Source: an uncultured virus (IMG/VR IMGVR_UViG_3300044974_001201)
Taxonomy: Duplodnaviria > Heunggongvirae > Uroviricota > Caudoviricetes
Direction: 5' to 3' (one strand)
DNA length: 64,000 bases
Virus record (IMG/VR): IMGVR_UViG_3300044974_001201
Part shown: positions 3,065 through 49,510 of the stretch, piece by piece
How positions within the stretch are numbered: position 1 is the first letter of the stretch
Layout: every line of letters starts with the position of its first letter
Made by a program: the position numbers and the translations under genes
Notes under the pieces: generated by a model
What the model saw: only the letters and a program-made list of their open reading frames with translations
Told to the model about the DNA's origin: nothing
Databases searched by the model: none

Positions 3065-3853
3065 ATGTACACCGCCGCGATCGGACGCCACGTTTCCGCA
3101 GTTTCCCACCGCCACTACGCCACCGCCGCCCTTGAGGCGTCGCTCCTCGCCCGCATTCACCGCAGCAAGACCGCGCGCGTGATCGACGGGCGCGGGCACG
3201 TCACTCGCGTGGCGGCGCTCTCCCGTGGCCCCGTGGGGCGCCGCAAGGCCCACCGCAACCCCGACTGGGGCACCGCGAGCGAGGTGACCCTCCGCGATGC
3301 GATGCTCTCCCTCGACGCGGGCGCATGGCGTGAGTTCCACAAGCGGTACGACAAGCTGATCGCCAGCGCGGCCGACAAGGTCGTGAGCAAGGGTCGCAAC
3401 GCCTCCGACGCGGTGGCCGAGATCAAGGGGAACGTGTACGCGAGCCTCCTCGCGAACGATCTTCACAAACTGCGTGCGTGGGATGCTGCGAGGGGGCAGA
3501 AGCTCGGCTCGTTCGTGCACATGATTGCGGGCAACGCCGCATGGGACTACGTTCGCGGTGGCAAGCGGCGCCGCACCTCGTCCCTCGACACGCCGATGGG
3601 CGACGACGACGACTCGGGCGTGCGGGAGTTCGCCGACGCTTCGCCCGATGCGTTCATGCGCACGGCGTCGCGCGCGGAACTCGCGTCGGTGATGCGGCAC
3701 CTGAGCGACCCGGAGAAGGAACTCGCTGTGCTGCGCTTCGTCGAGGAACTGCCGTCCAAGGAAATCGCGGCCCGCGTGGGCATCGCGCCGGGGACGGTCG
3801 ACGTGAAGATCAACCGCATCCGTGCGAAGCTCGCCGAAGCGATGGCGGGCTAG
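3065..3853 (+). CDS. ECF-type RNA polymerase sigma factor with a basic N-terminal extension ending in RNP
   Basis: Region 2 (AWREFHKRY..KLRAWD..LGSFVHMIAGNAAWDYVR) and region 4 (LSDPEKELAVLRFVEELPSKEIAARVGIAPGTVDVKINRIRAKL). Confidence 0.9.
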   Translation: MYTAAIGRHVSAVSHRHYATAALEASLLARIHRSKTARVIDGRGHVTRVAALSRGPVGRRKAHRNPDWGTASEVTLRDAMLSLDAGAWREFHKRYDKLIASAADKVVSKGRNASDAVAEIKGNVYASLLANDLHKLRAWDAARGQKLGSFVHMIAGNAAWDYVRGGKRRRTSSLDTPMGDDDDSGVREFADASPDAFMRTASRAELASVMRHLSDPEKELAVLRFVEELPSKEIAARVGIAPGTVDVKINRIRAKLAEAMAG

Positions 3854-4053
3854 CGGCGTTCGAGCATCGACCCGGTGCGGACGAAACACGATCCGACGAT
3901 CGCTCCGTACCACCTGATCGCAGCCTCGTCGAACGACGAAATCCCATCACGCTTCACCGGCACGAGGTTGCGCAGTCGGCGCCGCGTCTCGGCGACGATG
4001 CGCTTCTGCGCACGGGCGCGCTGCTTCTGAACGTGGCGGCGGCGCTTGTTCAC
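3850..4053 (-). CDS. Small basic hypothetical protein
   Basis: GTGA start/stop coupling with the upstream ORF. Confidence 0.4.
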   Translation of the reverse strand: MNKRRRHVQKQRARAQKRIVAETRRRLRNLVPVKRDGISSFDEAAIRWYGAIVGSCFVRTGSMLERR

Positions 4054-4196
4054 AGCGCGCTCCCTGCGGTTGCGATCGCCAGCGCGTCGAGGTCTCGCGC
4101 GAACGATGCGTGGCGCTTCTGGAACCCGCGGAACCATGCGTTGGCCTTCTCGCCGCGACGGCGGGCCTTCTGGAGACGACGACGAGTCTTGTTCAC
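4050..4196 (-). CDS. Small basic hypothetical protein
   Basis: GTGA coupling on both sides, AAGGAG RBS. Confidence 0.45.
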   Translation of the reverse strand: MNKTRRRLQKARRRGEKANAWFRGFQKRHASFARDLDALAIATAGSAL

Positions 4197-4450
4197 GAGT
4201 TTTCTCCTTCGAGTGCGAGGCGGTAGTGCTCGACGAGCGCGCGTGTGTTCCTCGCCGTGTCGAGCGCGGCACCGTGCTTGAGCGTGAGCCCGTAGCACAC
4301 CGCTTGTTTCATCGCCGTGGGTTCGGCGAGGTAGTCCGCGCGGGCGGCAGCGAGTTCCGCGCCGATGCGCTCCGCGGTGGCGACCGCGCGGCGCGCGATC
4401 TCTTGCGAGGCGACGTACGCCTCGCGCATGTATTCTTGTTCTGTTCGCAT
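4193..4450 (-). CDS. Hypothetical helical protein
   Basis: 85-aa ORF, AAGGGG RBS. Confidence 0.6.
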   Translation of the reverse strand: MRTEQEYMREAYVASQEIARRAVATAERIGAELAAARADYLAEPTAMKQAVCYGLTLKHGAALDTARNTRALVEHYRLALEGENS

Positions 4451-4466
4451 CGTTGCCCCTTCGCGC

Positions 4467-4685
4467 TCAAATGAGCCTGTACGCGGCGCGGTGCACGAAC
4501 CCGCGCCCGAAGCCCGCTGCGTCGTACAGCGACGCGCTCACGTTGTACTCGTCGCACGCATCGCGCACTTCTTCGAGTGTGCGAGGCTGCTCCGCGATGG
4601 CGGCGAGCGCGTCGTTCGCCTCCGCGGTCCATCCTGCGGAGAAGGTCACGGAGTAGGTGACGGGTTCGGTGGTCGCGGTGTTCAT
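4467..4685 (-). CDS. Hypothetical protein
   Basis: Directly downstream of the conserved promoter repeat at 4686-4740. Confidence 0.7.
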   Translation of the reverse strand: MNTATTEPVTYSVTFSAGWTAEANDALAAIAEQPRTLEEVRDACDEYNVSASLYDAAGFGRGFVHRAAYRLI

Positions 4686-5865: not shown

Positions 5866-6600
5866 ATGACCACCACGAAGAAAACGGTCAAGGGAACCTG
5901 CGGCGCCTGTTTCCGCAAGATGGCGCTCGACGCGAACGGTCGCGTTCTGCGCCACGGGTGGCGCGAAGTCGGCGGGCGGCGTGTCGGTTCGTACGGCAAC
6001 GTCTACCACTCGGGTCCGTGCTTCGGCGTCGCACGCCTCCCGTTCGAGGTGTCGCCCGACTGCACCATCGCGTTCGTCGCGGAGGTGCTCCTGCCGATGG
6101 CACTCGCCACTGGCACGCGCATCGACGCGCTGGCGGCGAACCCGCCGATCAAATACACGGGTTGCGTTACCGTCGGGTATGGCCGCGAGGAGCGCGAGTG
6201 GGGAGCGTTCGAGGTTCGTGTTCAACACGGCGAGGGCGAGACGCGCCCGCTGCGCTGGTACGGTGAGGCGCTTCACGAAGATTCCAACGCGCGCATCCCG
6301 TCGTACGCCGCGCTGCACAAGGTCGCCGTGCGGGAACTCACGGACAAGCGCGACGCGATCGCCAGCGACGCGATGCACTGCCTCCGCGCGATCGAGACGT
6401 GGGCGCCCGCCGCGGTCGCCACGGTCGAGAAGAAGGGTGCGCTCGTGCACGCGCACGGCTCGCACCCCGTGCTCGCGGCGTGTGGGCGGCGCCTCATTTC
6501 GTTGTCGGGCGCGAGAATCCACGTCGCGAAGAATGTCGAAGCGGCGACGTGCCCGAAGTGCCTCGCGAACCTCGCGAAGAAATCGGCGGCGACGGTGTAA
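5866..6600 (+). CDS. Zn-finger-like protein, paralogue A
   Basis: GTCGAC..H..C and H..C..CPKC motifs. Confidence 0.8.
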   Translation: MTTTKKTVKGTCGACFRKMALDANGRVLRHGWREVGGRRVGSYGNVYHSGPCFGVARLPFEVSPDCTIAFVAEVLLPMALATGTRIDALAANPPIKYTGCVTVGYGREEREWGAFEVRVQHGEGETRPLRWYGEALHEDSNARIPSYAALHKVAVRELTDKRDAIASDAMHCLRAIETWAPAAVATVEKKGALVHAHGSHPVLAACGRRLISLSGARIHVAKNVEAATCPKCLANLAKKSAATV

Positions 6601-6630
6601 GGTTGCTGCAACTGGCGGCATACGAGAGGC

Positions 6631-7197
6631 ATGGCAACCACGAAGATTACGGTCAAGGGCACTTGCGGCGCGTGTTTCCTGCCGATGGCGCTCGACGTGG
6701 ACGGTCGCGTAAAGCGCCACGACTGGCGCGAGCCCGGTGTGCGCCGAGCGGCGGTGTACGGCAACGCGGACCATCATGGCCCGTGCTTCGGGAGCAATCG
6801 CCTCCCGTTCGAGTTATCGCCCGACTGCACCGTCGCGTTCGTGGCGGATGTACTCCTGCCAATGGCGCTCGACACGGGTGCGCAACTCGACGCGCTCGAT
6901 GCGCAGGCCGCCCTCCGCGATGCCGCGGCACAGGAACTCACCAAGCGGCGCGATTACATCGCCAGCGACGCGGCGTACTGCCTTCGTGCGATCGAGACGT
7001 GGGCTCTCGCGGAGGTTGTCACCGTCAAGAAGAAGCCGCGGCTCGTGCACGCACGCGGTTCTTACCGCGGCTTCACGGCGTGTGCGCGCCGCATCACGTC
7101 GTTCTATGCGAACCGCGCCGTGACTGAGAATGCCGACGCGGCGACGTGCCCGAAGTGCCTCGCGAGCCTCGCGAAGAAATCGGCGGCGACGGCGTAA
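6631..7197 (+). CDS. Zn-finger-like protein, paralogue B (lacks the central region of A)
   Basis: Shares GTCGACF, GPCFG, LPFE.SPDCT.AFVA.VLLPMAL, CLRAIETWA and AATCPKCLA.LAKKSAAT with 5866-6600. Confidence 0.8.
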   Translation: MATTKITVKGTCGACFLPMALDVDGRVKRHDWREPGVRRAAVYGNADHHGPCFGSNRLPFELSPDCTVAFVADVLLPMALDTGAQLDALDAQAALRDAAAQELTKRRDYIASDAAYCLRAIETWALAEVVTVKKKPRLVHARGSYRGFTACARRITSFYANRAVTENADAATCPKCLASLAKKSAATA

Positions 7198-7231
7198 GGT
7201 TGCCGTCACTCGGAGCGTAAGAGAGGACACC

Positions 7232-7675
7232 ATGAACACGACGCACGCCCCCTCCGTCCGCTACGTCATCGCCACCTCCTTCGACTCGGCGAAGTGCTTC
7301 GCCGTCCCCGCGGCGTGGGTCGGCGCGGCGATCGACCTTCTGCGCTTCGCTGCGGAGTTCCCCCACCGCGCGTCGTGCATTGCGCAACTGCGCGACTGCG
7401 ACGAGGGCTGGTACGTCTCGCGAGACGCGAGCACCGGAGCGGTCGAGAAACCGTCCGATGCCATTCTCGCGATCGCACGTTCCGCGGAGATCCTCGGTCG
7501 CGCGAAGGGCGTTCTGCGCTACGACGTGCTCGACGCCGCTGGGATCGTCGTTGAAACGTTCTTGCACGACGAACCGTTCATGGCGCTCGGACGTGCCGCA
7601 AGCCCCACGTATTACGACAAGGCGCCCCTGAGCGTTCGCCCGGTCGTGTGCGGTGCAGCGCGAACAACCGGGTGA
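7232..7675 (+). CDS. Hypothetical protein
   Basis: Promoter repeat and GAGAGG RBS upstream. Confidence 0.7.
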   Translation: MNTTHAPSVRYVIATSFDSAKCFAVPAAWVGAAIDLLRFAAEFPHRASCIAQLRDCDEGWYVSRDASTGAVEKPSDAILAIARSAEILGRAKGVLRYDVLDAAGIVVETFLHDEPFMALGRAASPTYYDKAPLSVRPVVCGAARTTG

Positions 7676-7932
7676 CCATCACCACCGCGACGCCGCTCAC
7701 CGCGGAGAACGTCGAGCGGGCGTGCAACTCGCACTTCCGGTCGGCGCTCGCGATGCACCACACGATGGGGCGGCTCACGTCGATGCGCGTGCTCCCGATC
7801 GGGAGCCAGCGATCGTTCAGCATCAGTTTCACCCCGTACGAGGCGACCATCACGGACGACGACTCGGGGCGCCGCGAGCACTTCGCCGACGAGTTCGCGC
7901 GCAGGTTCGGCGGCAAGCGGGTCGGCGGCTAG
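7672..7932 (+). CDS. Hypothetical protein
   Basis: GTGA coupling with the upstream ORF. Confidence 0.5.
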   Translation: MTITTATPLTAENVERACNSHFRSALAMHHTMGRLTSMRVLPIGSQRSFSISFTPYEATITDDDSGRREHFADEFARRFGGKRVGG

Positions 7933-8819
7933 TACCGCAGCATGGCCCCCGTGATCGTGCCCTCGTCGGAGAACAGCGGCGCGGTCGCGGGGTCCGCCAG
8001 CGCCTCCGCCAGCGACCGCTGCGCACCATCCACGAGCACTACGCCCGCCACGAAGCGGGGCTGCTGCGAGTAGTCGTAGTACGTCCGCGAGTGCACCGTC
8101 GAGAGCGACTGCACGCGGGCGCCCGACGCATCCCACCCGCCGTAGATCGCGCACTTGTCGGGCGTGTTGCGCCGCATGTTCGTGAGCACGTAGTCCTTCG
8201 AGAAATCGCTCACGATTCCGGTACGCCCCGCGCGTCTCGCTTCGATGGCGGCGCTCGACGTGACGAACGTTCGCGGCGACTGCCGGTCGGCGGAGTACGC
8301 GCGGAACGGCACCCGCGCCGTCGCGCTGGCGTGGATCGCGTCCACCATCTTGCGCGTCGGGAGCGAGACGCCGTAGTGGTCGGCGATGCGCTGCGCCGTA
8401 ACGACGCTCACGGGGGCGTGGAACGGCGCGGAGTCGGGACCGACGCACAAGGGCATGGACGCGCAGAAGAACGTCCCCGTGCGCCCGCCAGCCGTCGCCG
8501 TGACGGGCACAAACTGCGACGGGGCGACGATGCCGGTCGGGACGTTCCCCGCGAGGGCGGTGTCGAGCACGGCGCGCTCGTACTGCGCGGCGGTCATCGA
8601 GGCGACGGCGGCGGCGAAGTCGGTGAGCACCGGGGCGGGAGGTGACGGCATCGTGGGCACTGTAGGCGGGCGAGGGGTGGCGGGGAGGGGCGTCGGAGTG
8701 GCGGGCACGGCGACGGAGGGCGCCGCGCTGCGGGGCCATAGGATCACGGCGAGGCCGGTCACCGCGGCAACGCCAGCGGCAACCTCGACGCCGTTCTGCG
8801 AGAGCCATGATCGGGGCAT
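7929..8819 (-). CDS. N-terminally anchored protein: Pro-rich linker plus conserved bacterial domain of unknown (possibly cell-wall-related) function
   Basis: MPRSWLSQNG-TM; GNVP, TAQRIAD..LPTRKMVDAI, KDYV, AIYGGW..VQSLS.VH..YYDYSQ motifs. Confidence 0.75.
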   Translation of the reverse strand: MPRSWLSQNGVEVAAGVAAVTGLAVILWPRSAAPSVAVPATPTPLPATPRPPTVPTMPSPPAPVLTDFAAAVASMTAAQYERAVLDTALAGNVPTGIVAPSQFVPVTATAGGRTGTFFCASMPLCVGPDSAPFHAPVSVVTAQRIADHYGVSLPTRKMVDAIHASATARVPFRAYSADRQSPRTFVTSSAAIEARRAGRTGIVSDFSKDYVLTNMRRNTPDKCAIYGGWDASGARVQSLSTVHSRTYYDYSQQPRFVAGVVLVDGAQRSLAEALADPATAPLFSDEGTITGAMLRY

Positions 8820-8839: not shown

Positions 8840-9256
8840 CTACTTCGCCATCCGACGGCCTTCCATGAACGCGATCCAGCGGTTCATGGCGGCGACGGTC
8901 TTGAACCGGGCATGCACCTCGCCGTTGACGTAGACGGTGGTTCCGTCGATCGTCATCTTGGGAAGGTGGTAGGACGGGTGACGGTACACCTCGTTGCCGT
9001 CCACGATCATGCGGACTACCGAACTCGGCGTGACCTGAATGCCCCCGAGCGAACGCCTCGTAGGCATAAGGAGGAACACTCGCGAAGGCCCCGTCGAGTG
9101 ACTGATGATCCCGGCAACGCGCCACTCCTCCATCGAATCACGTCCCGTGTCGGAGTCTCCGTGGAAGATCCGCACGCGCTTGCGTGTTCCGTCGTAACGC
9201 GAGAGCACATCTTCGACAGAACCGTGACCGTTCTTTAGAGACTTGCGATTTTTCAT
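8840..9256 (-). CDS. Phage-type hypothetical protein with MKNRKSLKNG leader
   Basis: RVRIFHGD..TGRD..STG..GG..YRHPSY pattern; canonical sigma70 promoter upstream. Confidence 0.8.
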   Translation of the reverse strand: MKNRKSLKNGHGSVEDVLSRYDGTRKRVRIFHGDSDTGRDSMEEWRVAGIISHSTGPSRVFLLMPTRRSLGGIQVTPSSVVRMIVDGNEVYRHPSYHLPKMTIDGTTVYVNGEVHARFKTVAAMNRWIAFMEGRRMAK

Positions 9257-9312: not shown

Positions 9313-10251
9313 TCACCACCCTGCGGACCAGAACTGGCGCGGGTAATACGGCGCCAGCGCGTCGTGGTCGAGCGCGCTGCGCTTGAAGATCGCGTGCTTC
9401 GCGTAGTCGGCGGGCGTGAGCGTTCGCGTGCTGCGATCGTCGAGGAGTTCGCTCCCGAGCCCCACCGCGTCGATCGCTGCTCGCGTCGTACCGGCGAGCG
9501 CCTGCGCTCGCGTAATCGTGCCGCCGTTGTCGGTGTAGACGGTCGCGAACCGACGGTCGCCACCCGGCCCGAAACGTCGCGCGTTCTCGGCGATCCACGC
9601 GGCGAACACGGCCTCCGAGTTGTACAGCGCGTCGAGGAGCACCACGGAGTTGAGGCCGGTAGGCCGGTCACGCACGACCGCCGCCGCGGGCAAGATGCCA
9701 CCCGAGTGCGCCATCACGCCGAGTCGGCGAACGTTCGCGGATGTTCTCGCGCCGAGTCGTGCGGCGACCGCGGGATGCGCGAGCACCTCGTCGAGCATCG
9801 CTGCGAATCGGCCCGGTTGCGCGAGCGCGCCAGCATCCATCCCCGCGGCGTCGTACCGGAGTTCGGGCACGATCAGCAGCGCCTTCGATCCCGAGCCGAC
9901 GAACTGCGCGAGAAGGTGCGACGCCTTGTGGGGGTGCCCCGACGACGAGCATGGCCCGTCGGTGTCGCCGAGCACGCGATCGACGCATTTTAGCACGCCG
10001 CGGAAGTAGACCCACACGTCGAGCGGGTCGGAGGGACCGAGGCCCGAGGGGATCACCACGGCGGAGGGCTTGCGCTGTTCTGGAAACGGGCCGGTCGCAA
10101 GGTCGAGCATCAACACTTGCGTCGCGCTCGACGCTGCGCTGGCGGTTGCCGTGAGCGCGATCACCGCGACGCCACCGACCGCGAGTGCGGCGGGCGCGAT
10201 CCACCAGAACGACGACGGGGCGCTGTTGCGGGATGCACGACGTTTTGCCAC
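9313..10251 (-). CDS. Membrane-anchored alpha/beta-hydrolase-fold protein
   Basis: N-terminal TM; AHSGG nucleophile elbow, LLDALY, C-terminal DH. Confidence 0.8.
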   Translation of the reverse strand: MAKRRASRNSAPSSFWWIAPAALAVGGVAVIALTATASAASSATQVLMLDLATGPFPEQRKPSAVVIPSGLGPSDPLDVWVYFRGVLKCVDRVLGDTDGPCSSSGHPHKASHLLAQFVGSGSKALLIVPELRYDAAGMDAGALAQPGRFAAMLDEVLAHPAVAARLGARTSANVRRLGVMAHSGGILPAAAVVRDRPTGLNSVVLLDALYNSEAVFAAWIAENARRFGPGGDRRFATVYTDNGGTITRAQALAGTTRAAIDAVGLGSELLDDRSTRTLTPADYAKHAIFKRSALDHDALAPYYPRQFWSAGW

Positions 10252-10290
10252 GGCGCCACCGTAACGCGGCGGGCGACGCCGTGGCAACGC

Positions 10291-17649: not shown

Positions 17650-18039
17650 ATGCTCACCGAGAAGATCCACGCCGTAACCGTCCGCTGGCCCGCAGTCGAA
17701 GGCGATATCGCCGACCGCGAGGCGGCTCTCCGCGAGCGCGACGTGCTCCGCCGCGGCATCGAAGAGTCGGCCTTCTCCGCGGGCGCCACGCAGGTTCGCA
17801 TCCTCGGCGCATGGGGCGTCGTGCTCGACCACTACCCGCTCGACACCCGGCGCTTCGACGTGCGCGAGGGCCAGCGCGTCTCGTTCCCGTCGAAGTCGGC
17901 GGGGACGAACGGCGCGCGTCGGTTCGGCACCGTCGTCGCTGAGACGGCGACGCGGGTTCGCGTCTCGTACGTGTTCCGCCACGGCGGCGCGTCGGAGAAG
18001 TGGGTTGCGCGACGAGACGTGCGCCCCGCGCGGAGCTAG
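17650..18039 (+). CDS. Hypothetical protein (C-terminal SH3/KOW-like strands)
   Basis: Promoter repeat upstream. Confidence 0.65.
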   Translation: MLTEKIHAVTVRWPAVEGDIADREAALRERDVLRRGIEESAFSAGATQVRILGAWGVVLDHYPLDTRRFDVREGQRVSFPSKSAGTNGARRFGTVVAETATRVRVSYVFRHGGASEKWVARRDVRPARS

Positions 18040-18976: not shown

Positions 18977-19238
18977 GCGGTTGACGGGATCGTACCGTTG
19001 CTGCTACGAAGGCGACCGACCGTTCGCGGATTTCTGCTGCTTCCCCGCGTTAGCCCCTCCCCGAAGCCGAGCAGCGTCAGGGGAGGGGCGGTCACAACAG
19101 CGAATCTAGAGCCGCAGCCCGACGCGCGGGCGGTACTGCGCCATGCGCTCCGTCCAGCCGTGGATGCTCTCGGGGCTCGGGCCGATCGCGGCCTTCGCGA
19201 GCTTGACCGTGTGCACACGAACGCCGCGCAGAACGCAA

Positions 19239-19829: not shown

Positions 19830-20383
19830 CGGACGACGATCCTGCGGTCGGGGTCCGTCGCGTGCTCTCTCGCGTACGCCCTCGCTCCCTCGATGAACGT
19901 GCCGAGGTAACCCCAGAACTGCGGATGGTTCTCGTTGATGCCCGACGGGATACGCCGGTCCTTGCCAGCCGCCATCACGAAGAGGTCATCGGCGGCGACA
20001 CGGCGGGGCCTCCCGTGCTTGGCGGCGTAGGTCGCCGCCTCCGATGCCGCCTCGTATCCCGCGGACCACACACTCTCGTGAGTGCGAGCGTCGAGCGGCT
20101 TCGTGCCGCGCGTTGATGACGGGTAGAGCGGGTTGCGCGCGGACTTGCGACCGGCGCGCTGCGCTCGACCGTTCGGCATGTACGCGTACATGAACGACTC
20201 GCGGCGCGGTCGGGAGGCACTCGCGTTCTCCGCTTCCGCGAGGTCGATCGCCTTCTGCTTCGTGGCGTAGCGACGGCCGACTTGCTCGCCGGTCTGCACG
20301 TTCACGACGGCGTGCGGGCGATCGTAGGAGTAGTCGGACTCGACGACGTAGCGGGGTGGGTTGCGGGTGGCGTGGCGCGGCAT
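19826..20383 (-). CDS. Modular protein with RNP/PNG/RNP motifs
   Basis: MPRHATRNP..YMPNG..RKSARNP. Confidence 0.75.
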   Translation of the reverse strand: MPRHATRNPPRYVVESDYSYDRPHAVVNVQTGEQVGRRYATKQKAIDLAEAENASASRPRRESFMYAYMPNGRAQRAGRKSARNPLYPSSTRGTKPLDARTHESVWSAGYEAASEAATYAAKHGRPRRVAADDLFVMAAGKDRRIPSGINENHPQFWGYLGTFIEGARAYAREHATDPDRRIVVR

Positions 20384-29531: not shown

Positions 29532-30443
29532 TCAGATGCCGCAGAACGAGTTGGCGCCGCGGAAGTACGCGATCTTGCGCTTGTCGATCTCCTCGACGCC
29601 GTCGTACTCCGACTCGTCGGCCGAGAACTTCACGCGCGCGTACTCGACGCTCACGATCAGGTCGAGCACGATGAGGTCGTTGTCGGTGAGGGCCGAGAGC
29701 GCGGGGAGCTTCTGCACGTTCAGGGACGCGGTGCCGGGGACCGACGTCGAAGCGACGCTCGGGCCGAACGTGAACTGAAGGCGGTTCGGGTTGAAGTCGC
29801 CCATGTTCCGCAGGTTCGGCTCGACGAAGATCTCGTTGGCGAACGTGTACCGCGCCTCGGGCCGGTTCTGGCCGGGGGTCGAGAGGTTCGGCGAGTTCGA
29901 CTGGCCCATGCCCGAGTTGAAGAACTGGGGCAGACCGAGGAACGCCGAGCACATCGTGTTGTTGCCGGGGGGCAGCACGTTCGCGAACGACTGGTGCACC
30001 ATCGCGCCCCAAAAGTCGTCGAACTGCGCCGACAGGTCGGTCACGGTGCCGCCGAAGCGGGGAACCTGGGGGGTGCCCGAGTCGAGCGACGTGCCGCTCG
30101 CGAGGGGCATCACGCGGAGCGTCTGCTCGGGCATGAGGCCCACCGAGAGGATGATGCAGGGGTCGGTGATCGAGAACGCGCCGCCCTTGTAGGTCGACGT
30201 CACGTCGATCGAGTTGTTCGGCACGGTCGCCGTCGAGTAGCCCGCCTGCGCGAACGGGAGGGCCGTGGTGTCGTCGATGCCGCTGGTGAAGGCGGTGAGG
30301 AGGCTGGTGAGGGGGATGCAGGTGTTCGTCGGCAGGTCGTACTGCCACACGAACGCCATCTTCTGGTGATGAACGCGGAGCGACGAGACGCGATCGTTCA
30401 GGTTGACGCTCGACGTGCCGTTCTTGGAAATCCACTGAGCCAT
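29532..30443 (-). CDS. Candidate major capsid protein (jelly-roll type inferred)
   Basis: 303 aa, beta-rich, highly biased codons, AGAAGGA RBS; sits after a membrane protein; has a paralogue. The ORF is secure, the capsid function is inference. Confidence 0.55.
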   Translation of the reverse strand: MAQWISKNGTSSVNLNDRVSSLRVHHQKMAFVWQYDLPTNTCIPLTSLLTAFTSGIDDTTALPFAQAGYSTATVPNNSIDVTSTYKGGAFSITDPCIILSVGLMPEQTLRVMPLASGTSLDSGTPQVPRFGGTVTDLSAQFDDFWGAMVHQSFANVLPPGNNTMCSAFLGLPQFFNSGMGQSNSPNLSTPGQNRPEARYTFANEIFVEPNLRNMGDFNPNRLQFTFGPSVASTSVPGTASLNVQKLPALSALTDNDLIVLDLIVSVEYARVKFSADESEYDGVEEIDKRKIAYFRGANSFCGI

Positions 30444-30535: not shown

Positions 30536-31048
30536 TCAGGCGGCGGCGGTGCCCCACCCGCGGTACGCGTTGTCGCCCACGGGAGCGCCCGCGGGGATCG
30601 TCGAGTACGGGTAGCCCGCGCCGAGGCCCATGTAGGCGTTGCTGCCGACGGGGAGCCCGCCCGCGCCGTAGACGCCGGAGGCGGAGCCGTAGCTCGCGGC
30701 CATCGCGGTGCGCTGCGCGTCGAGGGCCGCGGCGACCTGATCGCCGCCGAGCTTGTACGCGCTGTAGCGGAGCACCGCGAGCGTGCCCGTGCCCGCGGCG
30801 ATGCCGAGGCCCACGGACGAGCGCACCATGCCGGGGGTGCCGAGCAGCATCAGCGCGGCGCCGATGCCGAAGCCGCTCAGGCCGATGATGAGATCCTGCG
30901 TCCCCTCGCCCTCCGTGCCCGCGAAGCGAGCGACGAGGTACGAGGCGGCGCCAGCGCCCACGGCGGCGACGGCGGTCACGCCGAGCATGCGCAGGGCCGT
31001 CTTGAGGTAGCCGCCCTCGGGCGGGTTGCGGAGCGAACGATGAGCCAT
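30536..31048 (-). CDS. Multi-TM Gly/Ala-rich membrane protein with SLRNP leader
   Basis: About three hydrophobic helices; GGGAGG RBS; alternative start at 31114. Confidence 0.8.
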   Translation of the reverse strand: MAHRSLRNPPEGGYLKTALRMLGVTAVAAVGAGAASYLVARFAGTEGEGTQDLIIGLSGFGIGAALMLLGTPGMVRSSVGLGIAAGTGTLAVLRYSAYKLGGDQVAAALDAQRTAMAASYGSASGVYGAGGLPVGSNAYMGLGAGYPYSTIPAGAPVGDNAYRGWGTAAA

Positions 31049-31656: not shown

Positions 31657-32376
31657 TCAGTCGATCATCCAGCCGTCCTTGACGCGCATCGAGCCGCCCC
31701 GCAGAAACACGCGGCACCCGCTCTCCGAAACGTCCACGAACGGGAGGTTCTCGTGACGTTCGCTCTCGGGGTGGTCTTCGGCCATCTCGTGGCGGTAGTT
31801 CACGAGCCCCTTACCGTTGTTGCGGTTCGCTTCGTACGCGGCGGCGAGGCACCGACCGACGCAGATCACACGTTCGGGGAAAACGATCTCGGCTTCAGCG
31901 CACTCGTGCGGTTCGAGTCCGCCGTGGTGCGAGGCGTAATCGTCGTTCTGCGCGCGGTGCTTGCGCTTCGCCGCGTCGAGGTCGCACGCGCGGTGCTTGA
32001 ACGCAGCGCACGGCCCCTTCTTCGTGCGGTGGAACCCCTTGCCGTCGACTTGAAACACGCCGCCGACGAACCAGTATTGCTCGTTCCGGCGATCGTAGAA
32101 CACGCGCGGCATGAACTGCCGGTCGGCGTCGGTGACGTGGTTCGGCTGCGCGGCGAAGTCCCAGAACTCCTTCTTGCCGTCGAAGCGTTCGACTTCGAGC
32201 CACACGAGCGGGCCGAACGCGCGAACGTCGGCCTCGTTCGGGAGTTCGGGGTAGGGCACCGTCGTGACGTGGGCGTACTCGGGCGCGAGCCCGTACCGCT
32301 TGATGATCGCGGAGGGCGTTGCGTCGTGGTTGGAGTTGCGGACGGATCGTCGGGCGGGGCGGCGGCGGTTGTGCAT
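31657..32376 (-). CDS. Protein with two copies of a beta domain after a basic SVRNS leader
   Basis: P.V....W/F..GG...V repeated twice. Confidence 0.8.
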   Translation of the reverse strand: MHNRRRPARRSVRNSNHDATPSAIIKRYGLAPEYAHVTTVPYPELPNEADVRAFGPLVWLEVERFDGKKEFWDFAAQPNHVTDADRQFMPRVFYDRRNEQYWFVGGVFQVDGKGFHRTKKGPCAAFKHRACDLDAAKRKHRAQNDDYASHHGGLEPHECAEAEIVFPERVICVGRCLAAAYEANRNNGKGLVNYRHEMAEDHPESERHENLPFVDVSESGCRVFLRGGSMRVKDGWMID

Positions 32377-40585: not shown

Positions 40586-41038
40586 TCAGCGCGCGATCGC
40601 GAGGGCGAGTTGCCGCGCGGTTTCCTTCGCGTGCGCGCGGTCCTTCGCGTCGTACGCCGACTTCGCGAGCGAGCGCAGTTCGGCGAGCGCCTTCTTCGCG
40701 GTCGCGGCGGGCACGGCGCGACCACCGACGATGTGCGTCCCGGCGCTGTTGATACCGGGCAAGCCCGGTCCCCGCCACGACGCGATGCGCACACCGAGGC
40801 GATCCGTGCCGCGAACCATCGCGGAACCGTTCTTGACGCTTGCGCGCTTCTTCGGGGCGCGCTTCTTCGCCTTGACGGGGCGGGCCTTGCGGCACGTCAC
40901 CAGATCGAACCCGGCGAGGCTGCGACGGCGCACCGACCGGGGGCTGGTGCCCTTGATCGTACGCATCTCGGACCCGCCGCGGCTGCACGCACTCGCCCGC
41001 TTGCTGCGGGGCTTCTTCGTCGTCTTCTTCGCTGCCAT
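40586..41038 (-). CDS. Highly basic putative DNA-condensing protein with SVKNG motif
   Basis: Lys/Arg-rich; AGGAG RBS. Confidence 0.8.
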   Translation of the reverse strand: MAAKKTTKKPRSKRASACSRGGSEMRTIKGTSPRSVRRRSLAGFDLVTCRKARPVKAKKRAPKKRASVKNGSAMVRGTDRLGVRIASWRGPGLPGINSAGTHIVGGRAVPAATAKKALAELRSLAKSAYDAKDRAHAKETARQLALAIAR

Positions 41039-42485: not shown

Positions 42486-44782
42486 CGGCGCCCCAGAAGC
42501 GAGAGGAACGTGAACGTGCGCGACGCGCCAGCCTCGAAGAGCGCCTGCGCGTAGGCACCTCGCGCCGCGTCGGGCGAGAGCACGGGCGGCGTGCTACCGA
42601 TCGGGTTGACGCTGCCGCCCGTCACGCCGCCGCCCACGTAGGTGAGCGCGGTGCCCGTGTAGGCGTACACGGAGTCGGAGTCAGCGATCACCGTGACGGG
42701 CGCCTGCTGCACGTTCGTACGGACGGCCGACGCTGGACTCGGTTCCTGCCACACCACGAGTTGTGCGCGGCCGGGGGTGAGGCCATCGATCACGAGAGTC
42801 TCTCCGAGACTCGCCACGCGACCGGGGCCGAGTTCGCCCTGCGTACCCGTGAGCGACTGAACCATCGCAGCGACGTTCGGGAGCGTCGAGCGCACCACGA
42901 CGCGACCACGACCGGGAGTGTGCGTGACGGGCTCCGCGGGCGTGACGGGCGGCGAGACCGGCGTGCCATCGCCCGTGAGTTGCGCCCGCGTGATGGTCAC
43001 GGTCTGCCCCGCGACGATCGTCACCGGGAGGGTGTACTGGCGGGCGGAGGGCTGCGGCGTGCCTGCGGGACCGCCGCGGAACGGCTGCACGATCACTTCG
43101 AGCGTGTACGCCCCCGCGGGCACCGTGGCGCGGTAGGCGAAGCCCGACGACGCGAGGTCGATCGCCGTCCGACCAGCGCCAGCGCGCAGCGCCGCGGAGG
43201 TCGTCGTCTCGCCCGACGCGGGGATCGTCATCGGGATCGCGGCGGGCTGGTAAACGATCGTGCCAGTGCTCACGGCGGGAGTTCCTTCGGGGGTGGCGAC
43301 GGGTCTCACGGGCGTGACGGGCGTCGAGACCGGCGTGCCCTCGCCCGTGAGTTGCGCCCGCGTGACGGTCACGGTCTGCCCCGCGACGATCGTCACCGGG
43401 AGGGTGTACTGGCGGGCGGAGGGCTGCGGCGTGCCCATCGGAACGGGCGCCCCGTTGAACGGCTGCACGATCACTTCGAGCGTGTACGCCCCCGCGGGCA
43501 CCGTGGCGCGGTAGGCGTCGCCCGACGACGCGAGGTCGATCGCCGTCCGACCAGCGACCGCGCGAACGGCGGCGGAGGTTGTCGTCTCGAACGATGCGCC
43601 GGGGGCGGCGGGCTGGTAAACGATCGTGCCAGTGGTCACGGCGGGGGTTCCTTCGGGGGTGGCGACGGGTCGTTCTTCGGTCATCGTACCGAACGTGAGC
43701 GGCACCTCGCCGGTCGCGGGCACCACGACGGTTTCGACGCGGGCGTTGCCGCCGCCCGTCGGGGGGACGACGCGGATCGTGTGCGATCCCGCGGTGATCG
43801 GGAGACTGAACACGGTTTGCGCCTCGTCGAGCCACCGGCCGGTCGCCGTGTCGAGGCGCGTCGCACCATCGTAGATCGAGCCCCACGGCGGCATCCCGGT
43901 GATGCGAAGGCGCGGCGGCGTAGCGGCGGGCGGGCGATCGACGAGCACCTCGACGCGATCGGGCGCGGCGGGGTGCAGACGCCCTGTGAGCACCGCCACG
44001 TCGCGCAGCACCGCGAAACGTTCGGCGAGCGTCGAGAGGTAGCCCGCGAGCGGCTGCGAGCCGTTCGGGAGCAGCGCCGTCGTCGCGAAGCGTTCGAGGG
44101 CGGGGATCACCGCGCCCATCTGCGGGAGCACCGCCACGAGAAGGCGCGCGTCGGCCACGTCGTCTGCCGCCCACCCGGCGCGTGCGATGGCGCCTTCGAG
44201 GCGCTCACGGACCGAGGGCACGGGCATATCGGGCGTGATGCCCGCGACGTTCAGGATGCGGACGAGGTTCGCCACGCGGCCCGCGGGGATCGACGAGACG
44301 GGCGGCGGGATATCGGCATCGACGGGCGGAACGTCGGGCCACGCATCGTCGCTCACGCGATCGACGATGAACCCGTAGGCGCCGTCGGCGTAGCGAACGT
44401 AGTCGCTCTCGGGCGTCGTCGCGCGCAGGTTGCGAATCTGCTCGGGGTCCGACGTGAGCACGAACCGGAGGCGCGTGCCGCTGTTGTACCACGCAGGTGA
44501 CTCGGTATCGCCGGTCACGCGGTAGCCGAGGTAGCGCCAGTAGTCGGGCCACCGGGCGGCGGCGGCGTCACGCTGCGCAACCAGCGCGGCGGAGGGCGCG
44601 GCATCGACCTCGGTTTCCGCGGGGGGCGCATCCTTCGACGGGTCGGAGGTTGCGAGCCTCCGCAGATTGCCGAACGTGCTGGCATCTACGGATCGCGAAT
44701 CGGCCAAGCCCGCGGCACGCGTGCGGTTGCCCGCGGGGCGGACGACGGTAGGGGTGGTGTTGGAACGGCGGATCGTCGGCAT
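42482..44782 (-). CDS. Modular putative virion protein with PEGA/Ig-like beta-sandwich repeats
   Basis: ITGMPPWGSIY module; two near-identical GTIVYQPAA..YRATVPAGAYTLEVIVQP domains. Confidence 0.85.
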   Translation of the reverse strand: MPTIRRSNTTPTVVRPAGNRTRAAGLADSRSVDASTFGNLRRLATSDPSKDAPPAETEVDAAPSAALVAQRDAAAARWPDYWRYLGYRVTGDTESPAWYNSGTRLRFVLTSDPEQIRNLRATTPESDYVRYADGAYGFIVDRVSDDAWPDVPPVDADIPPPVSSIPAGRVANLVRILNVAGITPDMPVPSVRERLEGAIARAGWAADDVADARLLVAVLPQMGAVIPALERFATTALLPNGSQPLAGYLSTLAERFAVLRDVAVLTGRLHPAAPDRVEVLVDRPPAATPPRLRITGMPPWGSIYDGATRLDTATGRWLDEAQTVFSLPITAGSHTIRVVPPTGGGNARVETVVVPATGEVPLTFGTMTEERPVATPEGTPAVTTGTIVYQPAAPGASFETTTSAAVRAVAGRTAIDLASSGDAYRATVPAGAYTLEVIVQPFNGAPVPMGTPQPSARQYTLPVTIVAGQTVTVTRAQLTGEGTPVSTPVTPVRPVATPEGTPAVSTGTIVYQPAAIPMTIPASGETTTSAALRAGAGRTAIDLASSGFAYRATVPAGAYTLEVIVQPFRGGPAGTPQPSARQYTLPVTIVAGQTVTITRAQLTGDGTPVSPPVTPAEPVTHTPGRGRVVVRSTLPNVAAMVQSLTGTQGELGPGRVASLGETLVIDGLTPGRAQLVVWQEPSPASAVRTNVQQAPVTVIADSDSVYAYTGTALTYVGGGVTGGSVNPIGSTPPVLSPDAARGAYAQALFEAGASRTFTFLSLLGRR
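42940..43670. repeat. Recent intragenic tandem duplication of about 370 bp
   Basis: Near-identical DNA blocks at about 42940-43310 and 43310-43670. Confidence 0.85.
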
Positions 44783-44789
44783 AGGCGCG

Positions 44790-45533: not shown

Positions 45534-45556
45534 TTCGGCGAAGGAAGGCATTAGCC

Positions 45557-46174: not shown

Positions 46175-47260
46175 TCACGCCTCGCCGAAAACCCGCGACT
46201 TGTACGCGGGGCCGATGCGCTTGATCGCCTCGTACGGCGTCTCGCCCGGTGCTGCGCCGGGGATCGTCGTCTCGATCGGGATGCAGCGCGGCGAACCGAA
46301 GTTCGTCGGGAACGTACCGCCGTCGCAAACCTGCGCGGCGACGTGGTTGAGCGAGGCGCCCGGTTGCTCCCACCACACGTTGCTGGCCTTGAACCCGAGT
46401 ATTCTCGCGAGCGTCACGAACACCGTCGCGAGCCCCTCGCAGTCGTCGCCGCCGCGCTTCTGGCCCGTGAGGCGCGAAACGTTTCGCCCAAGGCCGTTCG
46501 TGATGCACGAGAGCACCGGCTGGAAAATCTCTTCGCCGTCGGGGTCGGGGAGGTAATCCACGAGGTCGTGGACCGATTCCATCAAGCGCGTGAGCAGTTC
46601 CGTCGCCGTCGGTTGACGCCCGAGTTCCGCGGCGAGTTCGCGGTAGATGCGGTGCGCCGTCTCGCGGAAAAACGGGAGCGTCACCGCGTAGTCGCAGTAG
46701 CCGTTCAGGATCACCAGTCGGTCGACGGGCTGCACCGTCGGGTCGATGCGAACGCACTCTCGGCACCACGAGGGGAAAGGCGTGCTCACGGGTTGCCCCG
46801 ACGGCGCGAGCGGCCCGCTCGACGGTGCGCCGACGCCGCGCAGCGCGAGCATCATGCGGGCGTTCGCGGACAACGGCTCCAAAGAGAAGCCCGCGGGGCG
46901 CGTCGCCTCCGCACGGCACGCGGAGGCACTCAGCGCGAGGCGGCTACGCTCGACGATCGTGCGACCGTTCGGCGCTACGCGGGCGCGAGCGGTGAACGTT
47001 CGCGGGGGTGCCGTCGCGCCGAAGAACCCGATGGGTTGCAAGCACACCTCGATGGTGTACTCGCCCGCGGGCACGACGGCGGTGTACTCCGCGGGGTTCG
47101 TTCCGGCGTCGGTGAGCGCGAACTCGCCATCGGGGCCACGGGCGACGGCGCGCGAGACGAACTCGCCGCCGTCCATGAGGCGAACGTGGCCCGCGCGGAA
47201 ACCGAGGGTGCCCGTGGTGGGCGTGGGCGGGCGCGGCGTCGCGCCGAAGATCGTCGGCAT
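46175..47260 (-). CDS. Transglutaminase-fold cysteine protease with N-terminal beta-sandwich module
   Basis: VDYLPDP..E.F..GDDCEGLA..LARILG..NHVAAQV..IPIETT (Cys-His-acid triad layout). Confidence 0.85.
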   Translation of the reverse strand: MPTIFGATPRPPTPTTGTLGFRAGHVRLMDGGEFVSRAVARGPDGEFALTDAGTNPAEYTAVVPAGEYTIEVCLQPIGFFGATAPPRTFTARARVAPNGRTIVERSRLALSASACRAEATRPAGFSLEPLSANARMMLALRGVGAPSSGPLAPSGQPVSTPFPSWCRECVRIDPTVQPVDRLVILNGYCDYAVTLPFFRETAHRIYRELAAELGRQPTATELLTRLMESVHDLVDYLPDPDGEEIFQPVLSCITNGLGRNVSRLTGQKRGGDDCEGLATVFVTLARILGFKASNVWWEQPGASLNHVAAQVCDGGTFPTNFGSPRCIPIETTIPGAAPGETPYEAIKRIGPAYKSRVFGEA

Positions 47261-47290
47261 GGTCCTACCTCTCGGCGCGGCGAGCGCGGG

Positions 47291-47836
47291 TTACTTGCTC
47301 TTGCGGCTGCGACGCTTCGGCGCCGATTGAACGTAGCGGCTCAGATCACGACTCGCGTGAACGTACCAGACCCATCCACGCTTCGGCGCCTTGAACCCGT
47401 AGGCCGACGTGCGAAGCGGGGTGCGCGAGAGCCACGCTTGCCCGCCGTCGGGGAGAGCGACTTGCACCTCGTAGCCCGCACGCGGGAGGGGGATGCGCAG
47501 TGCCTTCACGAGACGGCCCGCGTCGGCGTCGCTCACGCGATACCCCGAACCGATATACCAGAGTCTCAGTCCGCTCGCGCTGTTGCGCACAGCGGAACGC
47601 TTGCGATCCACGGCCACTTCGCGCACGCGGCCGACGTTTCCGTCGTCGTCGCGATTGGTGAACTTCGCGATGGCCGTCGCGCTCGGATCGGCGGTGAGGT
47701 ACACCTCCGACGTGATGACGTAGTTCGCGCCGCGAACTGAGTCGCGGGCGTTGGCGCGAGCGGCCCGGAGGTCGCCCTTGACCGCGTGCGTCGAGTGCGA
47801 GCCCGACGTTTGGATGTAGACGCTGTACTTGCTCAC
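47291..47836 (-). CDS. Two-domain protein with AVRNS linker and basic tail
   Basis: GTG start inferred; RKRSAVRNS. Confidence 0.7.
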   Translation of the reverse strand: MSKYSVYIQTSGSHSTHAVKGDLRAARANARDSVRGANYVITSEVYLTADPSATAIAKFTNRDDDGNVGRVREVAVDRKRSAVRNSASGLRLWYIGSGYRVSDADAGRLVKALRIPLPRAGYEVQVALPDGGQAWLSRTPLRTSAYGFKAPKRGWVWYVHASRDLSRYVQSAPKRRSRKSK

Positions 47837-47840
47837 TTGC

Positions 47841-48866
47841 TCACTTCGCCTTCTTGCTGCGGCGCTTCGGGCAGTGCGTGGCGAGGCGCGACGCGGCCTT
47901 CGACGATCCCTTGCGGGTGGCGCGGGCGCGGCGGGCGCAGGCGAGCTTCGTCCGCTTGAGCCGCGAGCGACCGTTCGGCGACGACGAGCGAGCCTTGCCA
48001 GCCCGCAGCGCCGCGGCCTTCTCCTCTGCGTCGCTCCGCAGTGAGTACGTTCCGTAGCAGAACCCCGTGGAGCCGCCGAAGACGCCGTAGTCGTCTCCGG
48101 TCGCGTCGTCTTCCATGTGCTCGACGGAGAACGTCTTGTCACGCTTGATCGCCGAGAAGCCCGACATCTTCGGGATGCGACCGTTCGGCGACGCCGTATG
48201 CTGCGCGACCGTTTCGACCATCGCTTCCGGCTTTGCCTTGCGTTGACGATACAGAGGGCGCCCCGCGAGCACCAGTGCGTGCGCTTTGCGCGCGGCAACC
48301 AGCGCGGACGCCGCCGTGCGGAACATCGTCCCGTTCGTCCCCGTAGCCTCGACGCCAGCCCGCGTGAGCCCGAAGTTCCGCTTGCCGTCGTAAACGTCGA
48401 GCGAGTAACCGCGAAAACTGCGCTTGCCCGCGCGCGGCGTGATGAAGAAGTGGTACGAATCAGGCCCGATCGTCACGTCGACTTCGTAGTTGACTCGTCC
48501 GGGGGCGGAGTGACTCTTCTCATGCTCCCACGCCGAGAGCGCGGGGAGCGACTCCGACGAACCGTTCTTCGCGGCGCGACGCTTGCGGCGCACGACGCGG
48601 CCCTTCATGATCTTGCGCTTGCTCGCGCGCTCCAGTTGCTCCAGCGTGTAGTTGACACCGTGCATGGTGACGCTCGCGTCGTCGTCGCCCTCGGGATACA
48701 CCTCGACGTAGCCGATCGACGTCATGATGACTTCGGGGCCGTCGTAGGTCTCGTCGTACTGCTGCGCGACGAGCTTGCGTCCGGTGCTGCGGATGTTCGC
48801 GAGATCGCGTGCGGTGAACTTCGGGGTTGTCATGAGATCGCGTGCGGTGAACTTCGGGGTTGTCAT
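47841..48866 (-). CDS. Multi-domain protein with AAKNG/SPNG linkers and basic tail
   Basis: Small domains separated by basic tracts ending in KNG or PNG. Confidence 0.75.
   Translation of the reverse strand: MTTPKFTARDLMTTPKFTARDLANIRSTGRKLVAQQYDETYDGPEVIMTSIGYVEVYPEGDDDASVTMHGVNYTLEQLERASKRKIMKGRVVRRKRRAAKNGSSESLPALSAWEHEKSHSAPGRVNYEVDVTIGPDSYHFFITPRAGKRSFRGYSLDVYDGKRNFGLTRAGVEATGTNGTMFRTAASALVAARKAHALVLAGRPLYRQRKAKPEAMVETVAQHTASPNGRIPKMSGFSAIKRDKTFSVEHMEDDATGDDYGVFGGSTGFCYGTYSLRSDAEEKAAALRAGKARSSSPNGRSRLKRTKLACARRARATRKGSSKAASRLATHCPKRRSKKAK
48801..48866. repeat. Perfect 33-bp tandem duplication at the gene start (MTTPKFTARDL twice)
   Basis: GAGATCGCGTGCGGTGAACTTCGGGGTTGTCAT twice. Confidence 0.95.
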
Positions 48867-49510
48867 CACTTGCTCCACTTGCGGTGCTTCGGCACCGAAC
48901 GTCCTGACGCCGCGAGGCTCGCGGCCCTCTTACGAATTCGACTCCGATCGCCCGCGTATCGGTAATGTCCGGTCACCTCGGCCCATACGGTGCCGGGGTA
49001 GTTCTCGTCATCGACAGCGCCGAACGTCAGAAACGAACCACCGGGCAGTTCGGCGTAGCCACGCCGCACTTCTGCATCGGTCACTTCGACCCACGTTTCT
49101 TGGTTGCCGCGGTAGTACCGCGTCTGAACGTTGCGCCCGAGAATCGGCCCGTGATGACTGACGACGTTTCGATCGCGACCGTTCTTCACGGCCTTGCGCG
49201 CGGGCTTGCGACGCGAGATGGCGTAGCCCGAGCCGGTGAAGTCCGCGAGGGACTCGATCATATCGGCCTCGTCCGCGTCGCTATCGCTCACGAACGAGAG
49301 CGCCGCGTGCGCGTACTGGTCGAAGGCCAGCGCCGAGTCGTCGGAGACGCGACGGTGAGTCTTCGGGTCCGTGACGCCGGAGCGCGGCGGACGAGTCTTC
49401 GCGCGTCCGATCACCTTCCCCCCATGCGAGACGGTGCAATGAACGTCGTCGAAGTCGTCGAGTCGGCACCTGATCGTGAGGAACCCTGAGTAACGAGTCG
49501 CCGTTGCCAT
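48866..49510 (-). CDS. Two-domain protein with RRKPARKAVKNG linker
   Basis: Leaderless sigma70-like promoter TTGCGC-N18-TAGCGT-N7-ATG upstream. Confidence 0.75.
   Translation of the reverse strand: MATATRYSGFLTIRCRLDDFDDVHCTVSHGGKVIGRAKTRPPRSGVTDPKTHRRVSDDSALAFDQYAHAALSFVSDSDADEADMIESLADFTGSGYAISRRKPARKAVKNGRDRNVVSHHGPILGRNVQTRYYRGNQETWVEVTDAEVRRGYAELPGGSFLTFGAVDDENYPGTVWAEVTGHYRYAGDRSRIRKRAASLAASGRSVPKHRKWSK

Follow-up and report, generated by a model that had tools for sequence, protein, structure and literature searches.

A recurrent asparagine motif borders basic peptides and exchangeable modules in the proteins of an uncultured virus

Introduction

The cutting codes of T4-like and giant phages are the closest documented kind of signal to the one described here. 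In SPN3US, 14 sites in 9 proteins (among them ASE-20, AVE-75 and ALE-111) have been mapped by mass spectrometry for gp245, and the N-terminal propeptides measure 20-254 residues, with several sites within one propeptide (PMC10052503). The present study concerns a 64,000-nucleotide stretch of DNA from an uncultured virus (IMG/VR record IMGVR_UViG_3300044974_001201; Caudoviricetes), called here at its full length the window, whose proteins repeatedly carry the sequence [K/R]-R-[K/R]-[S/A]-x-[K/R]-N followed by G, P or S. An initial annotation of the window had proposed a recurrent basic tract ending in Asn as a candidate maturation or packaging signal.

This motif resembles the prohead-protease codes (T4 gp21, phiKZ, SPN3US gp245) in that a short sequence recurs in many proteins, ends propeptides of varied length and can occur several times per protein. 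It differs from them in having Asn at P1 where they have Glu, in its very basic leaders of mostly 7-24 residues, and in marking C-terminal tails as well; moreover, no prohead-protease family was recognised by Pfam or PHROGs in the window or by Pfam in its extension. Unlike in the prohead phages, the capsid candidate here is a beta-sandwich with jelly-roll matches of Z <=4.6. We know of no description of module shuffling at prohead-protease sites, no dedicated literature search having been made, and a limited literature search found no Asn-specific phage maturation code, which may still exist in print.

In adenovirus, the viral cysteine protease adenain trims basic DNA-associated precursors at a short consensus and thereby frees small basic peptides. 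The initial annotation had drawn this analogy. The present case has another consensus and lies in another host domain and virus lineage, its candidate enzyme has a different fold, and no adenain-like (C5) match was found here.

Polyvalent proteins of phages and conjugative elements consist of freely recombined domains; packaging and delivery along with the DNA are predicted for them, and some are processed by peptidase domains of their own (Iyer et al., 2017; PMC5512222). They share with the proteins examined here the variable combination of domains within one polypeptide, which is observed among relatives of this virus. However, the polyvalent proteins of that account are large, with 2-15 recognisable effector domains and no universal joint, whereas here modules of 40-140 residues are joined by one conserved heptad. 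Except for a sigma factor, the motif-bearing proteins match no Pfam family, and the effector domains typical of polyvalent proteins were not found in them. Finally, asparagine peptide lyases (defined in PMC3207474) differ from the present proteins, in which no conserved self-processing fold surrounds the Asn, the upstream modules are unrelated and the linkers are basic.

Definition and enrichment of the motif

The motif is real, non-random and specific, and it borders exchangeable modules and basic peptides. A codon-bias heuristic, with heuristic gene starts, called 87 genes (18.8-19 thousand amino acids) in the window, whose G+C content is 65-71%. A further record, G001 (87,611 bases), belongs to the same virus, as it is identical to the window over the 594 bases of overlap compared and contains the capsid candidate of the window (29532-30443) at 100% identity. 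It adds 53 kb beyond the window start, and the analysis therefore covered a virus of 117,017 bases with 167 predicted proteins (window plus G001).

Window counts were compared with 300 within-protein shuffles over the 87 called genes. The tripeptide [RK]N[GPS] showed a weak excess, with 21 occurrences against 13.1 expected (about 1.6-fold; 8 of 300 shuffles reached 21). Beyond the tripeptide, the sites have in common an Arg at -5, a Ser or Ala at -3 and a basic residue (Lys or Arg) at -1 relative to the Asn. The pattern R...[RK]N[GPS] was found 11 times against 1.13 expected, and the strict pattern R.[SA].[RK]N[GPS], defined after the data had been seen, 11 times against 0.25 (more than 40-fold); no shuffle reached 11 with either. 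Within the first 16 residues, [RKQ]N[GPS] occurs in 9 of the 87 proteins against 0.89 expected (0/300 shuffles). The strict pattern has 11 matches in the called frames versus 4 in all other frames of both strands, and 24 across the whole 117-kb virus. With a profile whose threshold had been calibrated on shuffles to about one false hit per proteome, 36 sites were found in 30 of the 167 proteins. The excess is so large that chance is untenable, despite the post hoc pattern and the self-trained profile.

An artefact of composition or gene calling would invoke Arg-rich high-GC coding, positive-inside membrane leaders or the purine-rich 5' ends of mRNAs that may be leaderless. The barely enriched tripeptide would suit it, and several carriers have TANNNT 6-9 nucleotides before the ATG without a Shine-Dalgarno sequence, where N-terminal codons may face selection at the mRNA level. 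Nevertheless, this explanation is effectively refuted and hardly credible, given that the extended motif lies more than 40-fold above the shuffles, is rare in non-coding frames, occurs internally and C-terminally as well, and is conserved at junctions in other viruses. Composition, against which the initial annotation had wanted its motif checked, thus leaves the tripeptide weakly enriched and the extended motif far above the shuffles. All 13 groups of strings that it had quoted were found in the genes it had named, and the case for the motif is stronger than it had claimed.

Location of the sites

Among the 36 profile sites, 14 have their Asn in the first 25 residues (N-terminal leaders), 7 in the last 25 and 15 are internal, the two terminal zones each holding 12% of all residues. 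The residue after the Asn is P in 7, S in 3, G in 3 and D in 1 of the N-terminal sites; G in 11, P in 3 and S in 1 of the internal sites; and G in all 7 C-terminal sites. Leaders and tails bounded by the motif contain 25-73% Lys+Arg. The placement described in the initial annotation, at the end of basic leaders and between modules, was therefore borne out, and it extends to positions before basic tails. The sites in the window are listed below, a slash marking the junction after the Asn.

3242..3262 (+): RKAHRN/P, residues 60-66 of the sigma-70-family gene 3065-3853
9227..9247 (-): RKSLKN/G, residues 4-10 of 8840-9256, N-terminal leader type
10222..10242 (-): RRASRN/S, residues 4-10 of 9313-10251, followed by a hydrophobic, membrane-like segment
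19485..19505 (-): RASYRN/P, internal, residues 109-115 of 19239-19829, between its two halves
20129..20149 (-): RKSARN/P, internal, residues 79-85 of 19826-20383
20357..20377 (-): RHATRN/P, N-terminal, residues 3-9 of 19826-20383
31022..31042 (-): HRSLRN/P, N-terminal, residues 3-9 of the membrane-like protein 30536-31048; passes the profile without Arg at -5
32332..32352 (-): RRSVRN/S, N-terminal, residues 9-15 of 31657-32376
40826..40846 (-): RASVKN/G, residues 65-71 of gene 40586-41038
47579..47599 (-): RSAVRN/S, internal, residues 80-86 of 47291-47836
47841..48866 (-): polyprotein-like gene with junctions RRAAKN/G (48561-48581), TASPN/G (about 48180-48200) and RSSSPN/G (47970-47990)
49178-49198 (-): RKAVKN/G, junction in gene 48866..49531

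Three further strings (MAQWISKNG, SWLSQNG and SWFSRNG) are without Arg at -5 and form a weaker subclass, W-hydrophobic-S-x-N-G:

30417..30440 (-): AQWISKNG, N-terminus of the capsid candidate 29532-30443, a weak member
8790..8813 (-): RSWLSQNG, N-terminus of the membrane-like protein 7929-8819
16717-16740 (-): RSWFSRNG, in 16030-16746, a paralogue of 7929-8819

In gene 3065-3853 the motif ends a 65-residue N-terminal extension (net charge +11) ahead of the sigma domains (Pfam Sigma70_r4_2, E 9.3e-10; the region 2 match starts at residue 135), and in 40586-41038 the leader that it closes has 70 residues, 36% Lys+Arg and a net charge of +23. The long form of gene 8840-9256 is supported by phrog_17487, which matches residues 24-138. 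Homologues of 48866-49531 start at the Met matching nucleotide 49510, the coordinate used in the initial annotation. Regarding orthologues, that of 30536-31048 in L004, a 52.9-kb metagenomic contig with a capsid candidate 55% identical to the one here, has a longer leader and keeps ...SARRN/PPEGGY, while full-length orthologues of 31657-32376 retain the strict motif in 3 of 5 cases and the Asn column in 5 of 5.

The carriers are mostly unrelated, as all-against-all BLASTP revealed only two paralogous carrier pairs, and inheritance of the motif by paralogy is thereby refuted. Their genes cluster, forming 12 adjacent pairs where 5.2 would be expected (P = 0.002).

A repeated promoter-like element, found before a set of genes, reads GAAA(A/T)CGGCG.., CGTAAGGTT, a spacer and CGTAGAAGG(G), with the start codon 12-16 nucleotides downstream; examples are at 1876(-), 4701(-), 5743(-), 5854(+), 11002(-), 17638(+), 55107(-) and 60996(-). 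The earlier impression that the motif is missing behind this early-type promoter is supported, since by regular-expression classification it is present in 0 of 16 such genes versus 30 of 151 others. As a caveat, the motif genes 9313-10251 and 8840-9256 lie immediately downstream of the promoter-bearing 10291-10989 and on its strand. A second element, GACGTTT..GCATT(C/T)T, ends 7-8 nucleotides before the ATG of 3065-3853, 19826-20383 and 31657-32376, which suggests a second promoter class, and ..GTGTAGCGT.. at 7-8 nucleotides before the ATG is common to several carriers in the G001 extension. Both elements hint at leaderless transcripts.

Modules exchanged at the junction

A search with the product of 47841-48866 returned 17 proteins, namely the window's own product and 16 from several metagenome sources, which cover 14-33% of the query at 55-86% identity. 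These homologues are mosaics that contain the same small modules in different orders. When the mosaic proteins were cut wherever small or basic residues stand before an Asn-Gly or Asn-Pro and the pieces clustered, 8 recurring modules in at least 10 architectures (18 proteins) were obtained, the modules joining at ...[S/A][S/A]x-N/G (small-small-x-N/G) junctions. Some pieces are fusions of two modules, because the rule missed junctions such as ...FALRN/G and ...LAETN/G. The modules named below are as follows:

Module A: near-invariant basic, protamine-like peptide of 42-43 residues, making up the last 43 residues of 47841-48866
Module B: the PKFTARD module
Module C: the N-terminal module of 48866-49531

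Architectures in relatives include B/E/A, B/D/E, B/D/A, C/G/A, C/A/H, C/x/A/H and x/B/A/x, while those in the window are B/x/x/E/A in 47841-48866 and C/x in 48866-49531; the N-terminal module of the latter is thus joined to other modules in relatives. What comes before the PKFTARD module may be a lone Met, a basic leader ending ...RRSASN/P, or another module ending ...FALRN/G, and N-terminal leader sites and internal sites are therefore equivalent.

A control that used homology only compared 281 internal ends of 309 BLAST alignments with random positions. Alignment ends were within 10 residues of an Asn-Gly in 56.6% of cases versus 23.1% for random positions, and within 5 residues in 23.5% versus 12.3%. 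The commonest ends are about 6 residues upstream of the junction, because the heptad aligns between different junctions. The idea of polyproteins put forward in the initial annotation stands in so far as related viruses string the same modules in different orders at the junction, while their cleavage is something that we infer.

Regarding the start of 47841-48866 itself, the gene opens with an exact 11-residue tandem duplication (MTTPKFTARDL twice, 48801-48866 (-)), and its true start may be 48833, because the database copy (P0029, 330 residues) starts at the second Met.

Codon usage at the motif bears on whether exchange is directed by DNA or by protein. Codons vary between sites, both synonymously and non-synonymously, and the motif therefore acts at the protein level. 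However, a recombination linker at module borders, of which the peptide motif would be a by-product, could also account for module exchange at the junction and for a bias in the Gly codon. At the 21 Asn-Gly sites (e.g., 48561-48581, 49178-49198, 40826-40846 and 9227-9247) the Gly codon following the junction Asn is GGT in 11, GGG in 6, GGC in 3 and GGA in 1, versus a genome-wide usage of 59% GGC and 14% GGT, and the four strict K-N-G sites of the window all have AAG AAC GGT. The GGT bias arises partly because the genome avoids CGGCCG (25 versus about 198 expected), which AAC GGC CGN would create; GGC CGN occurs at no junction. Furthermore, the other motif codons vary freely, P- and S-type sites share only CGC AAC, and the N- and C-terminal sites are not module borders. 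We thus consider a DNA-level linker very improbable.

The motif as a processing junction

Since one sequence marks the ends of leaders, the starts of tails and the points of module exchange, a processing site is the most economical interpretation. We give about an even chance to the motif being a junction cut after the Asn by an endopeptidase. The enzyme would recognise a small residue at P4, a basic one at P2 and Asn at P1; with the Asn as P1, the conserved positions would be P6 (Arg), P5 (basic), P4 (small), P2 (basic) and P1' (G, P or S). A small P4, an amide P1 and a small P1' are the substrate logic of 3C-like proteases. Cutting would trim N-terminal leaders of 7-24 residues and C-terminal tails of 3-43 residues, would free the modules of the polyprotein-like genes, including the protamine-like peptide of 42-43 residues, and would shorten the sigma factor 3065-3853 at the end of its 65-residue extension. 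Because each module would work after release, modules could be reshuffled between genes at the junction. The freed basic peptides might then act with DNA or in the particle, in line with the co-packaging and release in the virion that the initial annotation had proposed. The transglutaminase-fold protein 46175-47260 would be the candidate enzyme.

A number of observations weigh against cleavage. The profile scored the very proteome on which it had been trained, and alignment ends falling exactly on N/G amounted to 0.4% versus 1.3% for random positions, without enrichment. Pro is at P1' in 10 of the 36 sites, a residue that few endopeptidases accept there, and Arg follows the Asn in two orthologues of 31657-32376. 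Four carriers are membrane-like, and proteins of that kind would have a basic N-terminus in any case. Nor is the motif conserved in the capsid candidate, contrary to what a prohead code would lead one to expect of a major capsid protein. Finally, no prohead, legumain-like, adenain-like (C5) or other peptidase family was recognised in the virus proteins, in a scan of 84 window proteins with Pfam (E<=0.01) and PHROGs (E<=0.001) and of 78 extension proteins with Pfam only (E<=0.001), which covers an incomplete and highly divergent genome.

Some of these points would fit an uncleaved short linear motif, acting as a docking or nucleic-acid-binding tag for particle incorporation, DNA tethering or a common partner, with the modules staying linked. 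It appears possible but doubtful to us. The motif is always in or beside Lys/Arg-rich tracts, the C-terminal sites read ...KN-G-R-R... in a roughly symmetric way with basic residues on both sides, the basic N-termini of the four membrane-like carriers could face DNA or the cytoplasm, and the failure to recognise a protease family would be expected. However, a tag leaves unexplained why the motif is found at the exact points of module exchange, and why the same module can follow Met, a leader or another module. In addition, one would sooner expect an invariant Asn followed by a small residue at a scissile site than in a contact with DNA that is driven by charge.

The chemistry of Asn offers a route to cleavage or isomerisation at the junction without a protease. 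Asn-Gly and Asn-Ser readily form a succinimide, and cyclisation of the Asn can break Asn-Pro bonds, as happens in asparagine peptide lyases. The invariance of the Asn and the G, S and P that follow it, which favour Asn reactivity in general, would agree with such self-cleavage. However, the Asn lyases known so far depend on a specific folded domain that surrounds the Asn, whereas the upstream modules here are mutually unrelated by BLASTP and the sites are in basic, probably unstructured linkers. Moreover, the conservation of Arg at -5, of a small residue at -3 and of a basic one at -1 suggests that another molecule recognises the site, and G/S on the one hand and P on the other imply different chemistries. 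Self-cleavage is therefore improbable in our view.

Other signals were considered and rejected. Most sites are without S/T at +2, as an N-glycosylation sequon would have; a prepilin-type signal fits only the paralogues 7929-8819 and 16030-16746; Ala is as frequent as Ser at -3, which does not suit a phosphorylation site; and 2A-like ribosome skipping involves another motif and a eukaryotic mechanism.

A candidate enzyme for the junction

If the motif is a processing junction cut after the Asn, one virus protein is a plausible candidate for the cutter:

46175..47260 (-): candidate processing enzyme, N-terminal beta domain and C-terminal transglutaminase-like Cys-His domain (about residues 165-360)

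The gene adjoins the polyprotein-like trio 47291-49531. A full HMMER scan revealed 111 relatives of the C-terminal half of its product, and in a 38-sequence alignment of the family D273, C274 and N305 are nearly invariant and H306 is invariant. Pfam Transglut_core is matched by 30 of the 38 relatives (best E 1.8e-12), while 46175-47260 itself scores 18.6 bits versus a Pfam cut-off of 23. Its AlphaFold2 (AF2) model has a predicted local distance difference test (pLDDT) above 90 over residues 170-355. The top Foldseek matches were PNGase, the putative cysteine protease 3isr and transglutaminases (probability 0.85-0.98, E 0.007-0.04), and the list includes mouse PNGase, a putative Cytophaga cysteine protease and the pseudomurein endoisopeptidase PeiP, all at E >0.001. 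The C-terminal domain probably shares the Cys-His core of PNGase, of bacterial transglutaminase-like cysteine proteases and of PeiP, a fold that does not tell the cutting of proteins from that of cell walls or side-chain amides. A complex prediction of the domain with a 51-residue junction segment of 47841-48866 scored 0.07 versus a mark of 0.32, which counts neither way.

The initial annotation had named two possible proteases. For 46175-47260, the transglutaminase-like Cys-His domain is in agreement with that suggestion; since the fold also includes cell-wall isopeptidases, hydrolases and amidases, its link to the motif is one that we infer. The other, 127-1155 (127-1173 in our gene call), had no Pfam, PHROG or PDB sequence match and is not retained, and PDB sequence searches with both proteins gave nothing useful.

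The capsid candidate

Protein 29532-30443 (-) has the strongest codon bias in the window and is a putative capsid protein. Its AF2 model (pLDDT 76.6) is a beta-sandwich for which Foldseek found no match at E<=0.001; a wide structural search gave weak matches, mostly to jelly-roll capsid or cement proteins, with a best Z of 4.6. A comparison of the N-termini of 18 orthologues showed a conserved S-x-x-G, an Asn in 6 and [RK]-N-G in one, that of the window itself. The candidate, which had been counted among the motif-bearing proteins, is thus better left out of them. IMG/VR scans with this protein and its alignment found only a record of the same virus, and neither the capsid alignment nor TnpB had a match in scans of GTDB genomes.

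Protein 20448-21302(-) is a paralogue of the capsid candidate (33% identity by BLASTP, 38% in a six-frame search of G001). Contig L004 carries three copies (6272-7306, 7303-8031 and 10001-10885), and some relatives bear a C-terminal extension of about 60 residues.

Other features of the virus

The virus is distant from cultured phages. Megablast of 10 kb of the window against 50,697 cultured phage records gave no nucleotide match, and tblastn of 47841-48866 and 33656-37192 against cultured phage records gave none either. Few of the 84 window proteins scanned are recognised by Pfam or PHROGs. Matches comprise:

two sigma-70-family factors
a DnaB/KaiC-like ATPase
a Hint + LAGLIDADG pair
TnpB
a TacA-like antitoxin
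a weak transglutaminase-core match in 46175-47260

No portal, terminase or HK97-type capsid protein was recognised by Pfam and PHROGs in the window or by Pfam in the extension, the genome being incomplete and highly divergent. An ESM Atlas look-up of 32426-33652 returned scores <=0.85 and was uninformative. G001 34595-87611 (L008-L010) encodes a PP2C phosphatase, an ADP-ribosylglycohydrolase, a NUDIX protein, a class-V aminotransferase, a UvrD-like helicase, two RRXRR-HNH endonucleases with 84% mutual identity, and two large proteins, possibly fibres, that have a common N-terminus.

A second recurrent N-terminus, MPT[I/L][R/F] or MPSIR, is followed in several proteins by P-x-R-x-V-R-x-A-G. It is found in large proteins without the Asn motif at their N-termini, 55749-56738 and 56846-58117 being mutual paralogues:

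39659-40579(-)
42482-44782(-)
46175-47260(-)
55749-56738(+)
56846-58117(+)

In 49580-50737 (-), a Hint start (50522-50737) and a LAGLIDADG homing-endonuclease body (49580-50512) share a reading frame that is interrupted by a single stop codon between the two. The locus has no canonical His-Asn intein end and hardly any N-extein, and it resembles an intein-like endonuclease that is free-standing or decaying.

Regarding RNA genes, 24772-25144 (+) is a complete one-piece transfer-messenger RNA (tmRNA) gene with the ARAGORN tag peptide ANDNFVPAFAAAA and an Rfam RF00023 score of 113.9 bits over the full-length model. A full-length CyVA-1 RNA match (RF02965; 52.9 bits versus a gathering threshold of 41.4) is at 19017-19094 (+), in the gap between genes 18581-18976 and 19239-19829. 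ARAGORN also placed a 90-nucleotide tRNA-Gly(CCC) at 17853-17942 (+), with no Rfam match at the gathering threshold; as it is inside the called gene 17650-18039, either the tRNA call or the open reading frame call is doubtful.

Across the 117,017 bases, 6-base palindromes are avoided to an extreme degree, with 31 of 64 absent and a total of 1826 versus 3739 expected. The absent ones include GCCGGC (0 versus about 145 expected), CTCGAG (0 versus 61), CACGTG (0 versus 60) and CCCGGG (0 versus 51), and CGGCCG occurs 25 times versus 198 expected. Rare 4-base palindromes are TTAA (3 versus 55 expected) and AATT (30 versus 101 expected). This avoidance suggests heavy pressure from restriction systems.

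Implications

The observations can be combined into a wider proposal, which we regard as rather unlikely in its entirety. According to it, a clade of large, high-GC bacterial viruses without recognisable HK97, portal or terminase proteins would make part of its proteome as combinatorial polyproteins, with small modules and protamine-like peptides strung together via a universal Asn junction that is cut by its own transglutaminase-fold P1-Asn protease, with basic peptides condensing or accompanying the genome and a pro-sigma factor among the substrates. If this were true, it would mean a new protease specificity together with viral protein evolution by module exchange at processing sites.

If the motif is a cut site, it would represent a new cleavage code, with Asn at P1 and basic leaders and tails, to be set beside the T4-like, giant-phage and adenovirus codes, and it would lie in a lineage without recognisable head-maturation machinery. 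From the motif one can predict mature boundaries for 30 proteins whose function is unknown, a set of small basic peptides and, possibly, a pro-sigma factor. Module exchange at the junction would offer viruses a testable route to new cargo or structural proteins.

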